This document shows, in pieces, positions 55,987-56,382 of a DNA stretch of 64,000 nt (positions are counted from its first letter, which is position 1; every line of letters begins with the position of its first letter). Source of the stretch: Chlamydiales bacterium (GTDB lineage Bacteria > Chlamydiota > Chlamydiia > Chlamydiales > JAAZZY01). The DNA is taken from the NCBI GenBank assembly GCA_965206695.1, contig CBDBKM010000011.1, forward strand, positions 224,001 to 288,000. The letters are read 5' to 3'. A program made the translations under genes and the position numbers. The notes beneath the pieces were generated by a model. It saw only the letters and a list, made by a program, of their open reading frames with translations, had not been told where the DNA came from and searched no databases.

Positions 55987-56052
55987 TACTTTAGCCTTAT
56001 TTAATTAAATTTACCGATAAAAAATAGGCCAACAAGTTATAAATTGCAATCG

Positions 56053-56324
56053 TTGACAGCTCCCAACCCTCAAGGGCCGGGACACAAAGCTTGGTTTTCG
56101 CAATAAAAACTCCTAAGGGGGAACTGTTACGGTCTTCAACCAACCCCATGATCCCCCGGGTCTGATATCTCTCCAAAGGCTTAACTTACCCGCTACCCCA
56201 CGGTAGATCTAAAAGATAGGAATAGTATACAAAAATATGAGAATTAACACGAATACGAAACGACACTTTAATCGAGACGCTCTCATCCCAATGCTAAATC
56301 AAAGAGTTGTCTCGCTTAATTGTC
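56053..56324 (-). mobile_element. IS200/IS605-derived non-autonomous element (family 1, copy 3) with omegaRNA-like scaffold
   Basis: Minus-strand TTTAT|gacaattaagcgag ... tcccggcccttgagggttgggagctgTCAA. Confidence 0.9.
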
Positions 56325-56382
56325 ATAAATTTATGACAATTAAACGAGAAAACCCACCTTTTTAAGGGTGGGATGAAAGTGT

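Follow-up and report, generated by a model that had tools for sequence, protein, structure and literature searches.

Two IS200/IS605-family elements head to head at one double TTTAT target upstream of pncB in a Chlamydiales genome

Upstream of pncB in the genome of a Chlamydiales bacterium, two transposable elements of one lineage lie head to head at a single site, ATAAATTTAT, and we consider it very likely that two members of the IS200/IS605 family landed there independently, on opposite strands. One is an old, gene-less mini-element that leaves the site leftwards, and the other is a young IS605-type element that leaves it rightwards. An earlier reading of this DNA (the original prediction) had proposed such a pair of same-lineage elements at a double TTTAT target, and the ends of the two elements, the target rule of their family and the matches to other family members all support it. 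Positions refer to the window, i.e. the whole stretch of 64,000 nucleotides that was analysed, and the features are collected in Table 1.

Table 1. Features of the junction, its two elements and their surroundings (LE, left end; RE, right end)
Feature	Position	Strand	Basis or remarks
Window	G000:C11:224001-288000		Genome of 2.46 Mb, 35% GC, 13 contigs
pncB, nicotinate phosphoribosyltransferase, downstream of the mini-element	54475..55986	minus	503-aa ORF
CGATTGCAATTTATAACTTG, candidate guide-equivalent if the mini-element is transcribed like a TnpB guide RNA	56033..56052	minus	20 nt 3' of the RE
Mini-element, gene-less IS200/IS605 derivative, PATE-like	56053..56324	minus	272 bp
Mini-element RE, hybrid hairpin CCCGGCCC-TTGA-GGGTTGGG plus AGCTGTCAA	56053..56081	minus	Alignments
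Mini-element LE, weakened subterminal hairpin (CTCTTTGAT...AGCATTGGG)	56265..56324	minus	Alignment and folding
Perfect 28-bp palindrome	56316-56343		Double target flanked by the outermost 9 nt of either LE
Double target/TAM, ATAAATTTAT	56325-56334		TTTAT for the IS605-type element on plus, for the mini-element on minus
IS605-type element, first 1217 of 1665 bp	56335..57551	plus	LE, tnpA, tnpB codons 1-248
IS605-type LE subterminal hairpin, CCCACC-TTTTTAAG-GGTGGG	56353..56372	plus	-6.0 kcal/mol
tnpA, Y1/HUH transposase	56383..56814	minus	Pfam Y1_Tnp 5.3e-20
tnpB, truncated after residue ~248 of 367	56808..57551	plus	Pfam
IS630-like element inside tnpB, 939 bp including flanking TA	57550..58488	minus	Pfam DDE_3, HTH_Tnp_IS630

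The double target and the family around it

Having LE, RE, target and cleavage motifs in common, the mini-element and the tnpA/tnpB element belong to one large family in this 2.46-Mb genome. BLAST searches with both junction LEs gave 86 LE starts genome-wide, 81 of them with TTAT directly 5' and 60 with TTTAT, and the genome also holds 91 REs that match AGGGTTGGGAGCTGTCAA with at most three mismatches. The target rule of the family is insertion 3' of TTAT or TTTAT, and sibling copies are not in general flanked by a duplication. Listing the family ends placed the RE terminus at ...GCTGTCAA. The canonical RE hairpin is CCCTTCCC-TTTA-GGGTTGGG, with GAAT 5' of its foot and AGCTGTCAA on its 3' side, the terminal TCAA lying 9 nt after the hairpin, while the LE hairpin starts 18 nt past the cleavage point and has AAAA 5' of its foot.

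Among the 177 family ends, this junction is the one head-to-head pair. The LEs that meet in it are homologous, with 77% identity across 60 nt (E 7.7e-6), and it is this homology, along with the shared motifs, that ties the mini-elements to the TnpA/TnpB lineage. The two arms of the junction are identical for 14 nt only and diverge beyond that point, with one mismatch in 20 nt, three in 25 nt and 14 in 55 nt (75% identity over 55 nt). The right arm, which is the LE of the tnpA/tnpB element, is 100% identical to the LE of a young IS605 subfamily with 28 copies at 95% identity or more; the left arm, which is the LE of the mini-element on the minus strand, groups with the mini-element copies and carries the variants of their subfamily. 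In these respects the original prediction was accurate throughout: TTTAT does stand on both strands at the center, the mini-element and the IS605-type element do depart from it in opposite directions, the 28-bp palindrome is perfect, and the LE homology holds. Folded as single-stranded DNA, 56270-56390 reaches -25.6 and -25.8 kcal/mol on the two strands (z -6.8 and -7.8), energies matched by none of 200 shuffles, and the near-perfect palindrome of 40 nt would be expected to form a fold-back hairpin in single-stranded DNA that hides the two TTTAT cleavage sites. In Rfam the palindrome drew sub-threshold miRNA-hairpin matches only (26 bits, where the gathering score is 93), and a pattern scan of genome contigs with 18 specified bases gave 43 matches, about the number estimated for chance.

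The leading strand is G-rich. The young IS605 subfamily tends to have its top strand on whichever strand is richer in G locally, as 24 of its 30 copies do, and among older LEs the orientation agrees with the local skew in 34 of 56. The copy at the junction is in the minority orientation, a point against the reading of two independent insertions, being one of two plus-strand exceptions among the 18 young copies in negative GC skew. The preference of the young subfamily fits the known link between IS200/IS605 transposition and the lagging-strand template, as reported in PMC8612924.

Several other arrangements of family ends were noted along the way. Three micro-elements of ~47 nt follow TTAT (G000:C2:35820-35866, G000:C10:430163-430209 and G000:C8:46171-46125), with an LE fused straight to the RE terminus (…TTGGGAGCTGTCAA). 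Their single hairpin is shared by the two ends, which gives them the look of minimal, REP-like family derivatives. At G000:C4:22996-23062, two RE termini stand tail to tail with no element bodies attached, as a perfect inverted repeat of ~28 nt (ACTTCCCTTTAGGGTTGGGAGCTGTCAA) flanking an 11-nt core. The closest sibling of the IS605-type element (flanks at G000:C11:182021-182054 and 180326-180355) sits in an apparent 20-bp target duplication, with ACGGCCTTAT-GAAGATCTAA-ACGGCCTTAT before the element and GAAGATCTAAAT after it, which is unusual for a family that does not duplicate its target.

Anatomy and decay of the two elements

On the minus strand the mini-element begins at 56324 (GACAATTAAGCG...) and ends at 56053 (...GCTGTCAA). 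It is made up of an LE, ~50 nt resembling the LE-adjacent region (a remnant of the tnpA tail), an extra segment of ~70 nt in the middle, and ~110 nt that correspond to the last part of the 1665-bp element, comprising the closing codons of tnpB and everything up to and including the RE; in characterized relatives it is this part that yields the TnpB guide RNA. Of the two blocks homologous to the 3' end of tnpB and the RE, one is 83% identical across 36 nt and the other 90% across 30 nt, and the only ORF overlapping the mini-element is a frame of 59 aa (55997-56176). We aligned 19 candidate copies or fragments, not all of which hold beyond the LE region; eight run from end to end, with differing flanks and with TTAT or a close variant at the LE. 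These eight are mutually only 79-88% identical, which implies that the mini-element family is old, and those other than the copy at the junction measure 292-300 bp. The nearest copy to the one at the junction is 88% identical to it. The window itself holds a second mini-element (15397-15689, plus strand) of 293 bp, 88% identical to the first, with a 9-nt deletion of its own (cgttgaatt). No tnpB-bearing parent with the ~70-nt segment was found in this genome or in 40 relatives. In one order-level relative (G026) there is a single weak, gene-less relic (L043:1455-1625, minus strand; 72% over 136 nt), which resembles the RNA module of the mini-element including the extra segment, has an ...AGAGCTGTCAC end, and has no tnpB beside it in the 1.9 kb covered.

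Both ends of the mini-element at the junction have decayed. Some 27 nt (agtgatcgttgaattaggaatcccttc in the consensus) have been deleted, with the deletion junction between 56076 and 56077, just 5' of the 3' half of the RE hairpin. The deletion removes GAAT, so that GTGT now precedes the hairpin, and a GAAT-type tetranucleotide beside the RE hairpin is kept in all seven of the other end-to-end copies. The absence of the GAAT segment that is present in the 15-kb copy had been part of the original prediction and is confirmed by the alignment, in which 15397-15689 keeps AGGAAT beside its hairpin; likewise, the good terminal hairpin that was said to survive the loss is there, as the hybrid RE hairpin reaches -6.4 kcal/mol, compared with -4.4 for canonical ends. 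What had been overlooked was the decay of the LE hairpin, which carries two weakening substitutions, so that the canonical fold is not predicted and the centroid structure is unfolded. In IS608 the guide (GR) GAAT is reported to pair with the cleavage site TCAA (PMC5934647), and removal of the GR to abolish robust complex formation (PMC3201880). The immobilization that had been suggested for the mini-element fits this rule by analogy. With the GAAT guide for RE cleavage lost and the LE hairpin weakened, its ends would not be expected to be competent for TnpA cleavage, and for these reasons the mini-element is very probably no longer excisable.

The IS605-type element is of a very different age. 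It is 99.9% identical to G000:C11:182020-180804, a further 14 copies cover its bases 1-1217 at 98.3% identity or more, and at least 11 complete siblings of ~1665 bp retain both ends; elements of this 1665-bp type are still proliferating in the genome. Its LE hairpin is terminator-like for tnpA on the minus strand. The tnpA of this copy is unchanged, and its product matches the TnpA of ISHp608 (E 5.6e-33) with the HVH motif and the tyrosine of the C-terminal KYI aligned. The gene keeps an open frame of 143 codons, whose translation can be aligned with IS608 TnpA from residue 17 onwards, and no ATG, GTG or TTG occurs upstream of the Met at 56607 within the open frame 56383-56814. This start-less sequence recurs in the other copies (identity of at least 98%), pointing to a non-canonical start (ATT or ATA) or to a very low level of translation. 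The 248-aa stump of TnpB retains Pfam matches to HTH_OrfB_IS605 (3.4e-18) and OrfB_IS605 (2.8e-15), and in the full-length sibling TnpB of 367 aa the RuvC D-E-D and CxxC...CxxC motifs could be read by eye. A near-consensus promoter, TAGACA-N18-TATAAT (11/12; 56780-56809, plus strand), was picked up by a scan for sigma-70-type promoters and ends at the first ATG of tnpB (56808), so that the tnpB message would either lack a leader or use the ATG at 56817 or 56820 as its start.

This copy ends where an IS630-like element has inserted at TA, 57550/57551, which is base 1217 of the IS605-type element. There are 126 full-length copies of the IS630-like element genome-wide, ~99% identical and all with TATAGT...ACTATA ends; they make up ~5% of the genome and are inserted at TA, often within IS605 copies. 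The last 448 bp of the IS605-type element, including its RE, are absent from the window, and the DNA that begins at 58489 is not its remainder. A single diverged paralogue of 58489-59093 lies on contig C2. No reciprocal IS630/IS605 junction was found in the assembly, where intact IS605 sequence leads into bases 1218-1257 in all 24 copies. The IS630-like insertion and the missing right part together mean that tnpB stops after about residue 248 and that the RE and right flank are lost, and because of this loss a complete canonical IS605 insertion at the site cannot be shown. That this copy is itself dead had escaped the original prediction. Both elements are now dead as units, and by analogy with IS608 both would be immobile.

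Origin of the junction and its bearing on pncB

The events that would have led to the junction can be put in order with some plausibility. The Y1 transposase TnpA would move members of the family as single-stranded DNA ("peel and paste"), and the mini-element and the IS605-type element would each have inserted just 3' of its own TTTAT; since these are on opposite strands, the two LEs face each other. The mini-element, an old non-autonomous element of the PATE type, probably arrived first, and the young IS605 most likely came second, to be struck later at base 1217 by the IS630-like element, with everything rightward being lost. The order of mini-element, IS605, IS630 and loss of the right part of IS605 is suggested by the divergence figures, i.e. 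nearest-copy identities of 88% for the mini-element and 99.9% for the IS605-type element. Searching by the pncB 5' region in 40 relatives, none of which is of the same genus, found no empty-site allele, the best DNA identity being 73%. The small gene that stands just upstream of pncB in the loci of five of nine relatives has its homolog 108 kb away here (G000:C11:172112-172540), where it adjoins another IS605 RE (G000:C11:172607). Since synteny around pncB is broken, the original flank cannot be rebuilt.

It is scarcely credible that the palindrome instead arose as a fold-back during assembly, or through template switching that turned one LE into an inverted duplication. Assemblers are known to create perfect palindromes in error where repeats end, and the read evidence for the junction consists of contigs that probably come from the same sample as the assembly. 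Either event, however, would give identical arms, and here the identity ends after 14 nt, with 14 mismatches in 55, each arm matching a different subfamily with many independent copies. In addition, an asymmetric 89-nt unitig at single-copy depth crosses the center with 0 differences. This unitig, from run X1, covers 56269-56357 at a depth of 6.8 and extends only 28 letters to the right of the center, which is below the 31-letter bridging rule, and a 3603-nt pncB contig of the same run covers 55400-56225 at a depth of 6.87, again with 0 differences. As run X1 is probably the source sample of the assembly, this is good but not independent support. Run X2, from another study, contains the IS605 and LE repeats and has no cover on 55400-56155, and hence does not offer an independent view of the junction.

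Two independent landings do raise the question of coincidence. If 86 insertions were distributed uniformly among the 50,311 TTAT sites of the genome, double occupancy of ATAA-N2-TTAT would be expected 0.0006 times, 0.003 times if only sites outside ORFs of at least 120 aa are considered, and 0.009-0.048 times if any spacing from 0 to 10 is allowed, so that pure chance is a poor fit; these figures have to be weighed against the fact that one case was picked post hoc and that real site usage is certainly uneven. This has led us to consider a reading, unlikely in our judgment, in which the pairing is not a matter of chance and a resident LE beside a second, opposite-strand TTAT acts as a hot spot, where the complement of the first 15 nt of the resident (TCTCGCTTAATTGTC) would pair with the first 15 nt of the incoming element (GACAATTAAACGAGA) and tether the single-stranded circle. 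Besides the low expected counts, it can be said for this reading that only two resident LEs genome-wide have such a second site, ours and G000:C4:17754, and that one of the two is occupied. Moreover, pairing between the LE and the target flank is reported to redirect IS608 integration in vitro despite a 20-fold excess of random targets (PMC5934647). However, the pairing engineered in IS608 involves LE +44 to +51, 3' of the hairpin, and not the +1 to +15 linker, according to the same source. The hot spot would also rest on a single case found post hoc: there is no second head-to-head pair among the 177 ends, a metagenome pattern scan for this family's head-to-head junctions yielded nothing but one unrelated palindrome, and a bias towards intergenic, AT-rich or tolerated sites could raise the chance figure further. 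That a resident LE served as a beacon, the incoming circle pairing over ~15 nt and integrating head to head, and that the resulting fold-back then hid the two cleavage sites and locked both elements in place, is a chain of events to which we give a small chance. Were it true, it would amount to a natural, base-pair-extended choice of target and would offer elements with Y1 transposases a route to BIME-like inverted pairs.

We find it quite improbable that the mini-element has been co-opted as a promoter or guide RNA that drives or regulates pncB. The pncB product is a nicotinate phosphoribosyltransferase (Pfam NAPRTase_N 1.2e-35, NAPRTase_C 1.3e-23). The mini-element reads towards its gene, with 66 bp separating the RE from the ATG downstream. 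Guide RNAs of TnpB elements are reported to extend into flanking DNA (PMC8612924), and PATEs to encode TnpB guide RNAs often (PMC10055086). The original prediction had named pncB upstream DNA as the guide, and the RE boundary at ...GCTGTCAA does place CGATTGCAATTTATAACTTG at 56052 to 56033, with the ATG of pncB (55986) 47 nt further downstream. It had also seen a promoter-like tract pointing into pncB and suggested that the tract could drive the gene, and this part did not hold up, as a scan for sigma-70-type promoters was empty on the minus strand of this mini-element and gave nothing in two other copies, leaving the idea unsupported. TATACT is present in the mini-element with a poor -35; reading TGTATACT as an extended -10 was rejected, its TG being one base too close, and a terminator-like hairpin seen by eye (GTTCCCCTTTGGGAAT followed by a T-run) failed the scan in three copies. 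The sequence TTGCAA-N17-TATTTT between the RE and the ATG (8/12, seen by eye and below the scan threshold) might serve pncB as a core promoter of its own. In the genome CGATTGCAATTTATAACTTG is matched exactly at its own site alone, which is preceded by GCTGTCAA and not TTAT, and no other match with up to three mismatches, over 20 or 16 nt, follows directly after TTAT in the genome; TnpB should consequently not bind there, and neither self-targeting nor trans-targeting would be expected. In an RNAalifold analysis of the eight mini-elements the covariation term was +1.91 with only three of 55 pairs compensatory, an uninformative outcome that lends no support to a conserved RNA fold, and Rfam gave no match to a guide RNA.

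Considering these alternatives, the interpretation we prefer is still that of two separate insertions, and the locus is best seen as transposon debris that built up in layers in a genome saturated with IS elements, the old mini-element being followed by a young IS605, an IS630 and a deletion. It looks unusual and is ordinary debris of limited wider value. The head-to-head geometry is a curiosity that carries a small chance of reflecting base-pair-assisted choice of target. If head-to-head pairs at double targets proved to be more common than chance, natural IS200/IS605 elements would use extra base pairing to select targets, as has so far been shown only for engineered IS608.

Comparison with known systems

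The closest parallels are with IS608 (ISHp608) of Helicobacter pylori, the source of the end rules used here for comparison (PMC3201880, PMC5934647). As in IS608, a Y1/HUH TnpA is found with tnpB alongside, the imperfect hairpins of the family are subterminal, insertion is 3' of a tetranucleotide, TCAA closes the RE and GAAT stands on the 5' side of its hairpin foot (PMC5934647), and the LE hairpin lies 18-19 nt from the cleavage site. The IS608 cleavage sites TTAC and TCAA are described as being read by the guides AAAG and GAAT, which are 5' of the hairpin feet (PMC5934647). In contrast, the target here is TTAT (mostly TTTAT) rather than TTAC, and the left guide would be AAAA rather than AAAG, which is the change that might be expected if a T replaced the C of IS608. 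The two systems also differ in that tnpA and tnpB are here divergent and overlap at their starts, that tnpA lacks a canonical start codon, and that the family has undergone a massive expansion, to 86 LEs in 2.46 Mb. The locus shows that the IS608 end rules, TCAA with GAAT and a four-base guide that reads the target, hold in a distant lineage that uses TTAT.

With its Y1 TnpA, its TnpB and its insertion at a fixed target, the right-hand element can be assigned to the IS200/IS605 family. Its sibling TnpB (367 aa) matches the TnpB of ISDra2 at E 4.6e-67, and the ISDra2 rule is reported to be that the guide of its RE-derived RNA (reRNA, or omega RNA) is the ~16-20 nt after the RE and that the TAM equals the TnpA target (PMC8612924). 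The predicted TAM differs from that of ISDra2, TTTAT against TTGAT; at this locus, moreover, tnpB is truncated and the element has lost its own RE and guide.

The junction recalls the BIMEs, in which REP and iREP pairs, head to head or tail to tail, are handled by TnpA-REP (RAYT), as described in PMC3333891. Both have two hairpin-bearing ends in inverted order and a relative of the Y1 transposases (PMC3333891). Unlike BIMEs, which are recurrent units with hundreds of copies, the junction is one head-to-head pair among 177 ends, and its partners are whole transposons (272 bp and 1217+ bp) and not REPs of 30-40 nt. Being a single pair with long partners, it falls outside the BIME definition.

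In the case of the mini-element, the comparison is with PATEs (palindrome-associated transposable elements), gene-less IS200/IS605 derivatives that were described in Geobacillus and that often encode TnpB guide RNAs (PMC10055086). The mini-element has both family ends without a transposase or tnpB gene, occurs at several unrelated sites with TTAT at the LE, and carries a 3' tnpB/RE module, all of which makes it a PATE-type derivative. It differs from PATEs in that this copy has lost the RE guide tetranucleotide and adjoins a full element head to head, and in that the ~70-nt extra segment of its family is absent from the tnpB-bearing elements of the genome. Taken together, the two elements at the junction are an IS608-like IS605 and a PATE with a candidate guide-RNA module.
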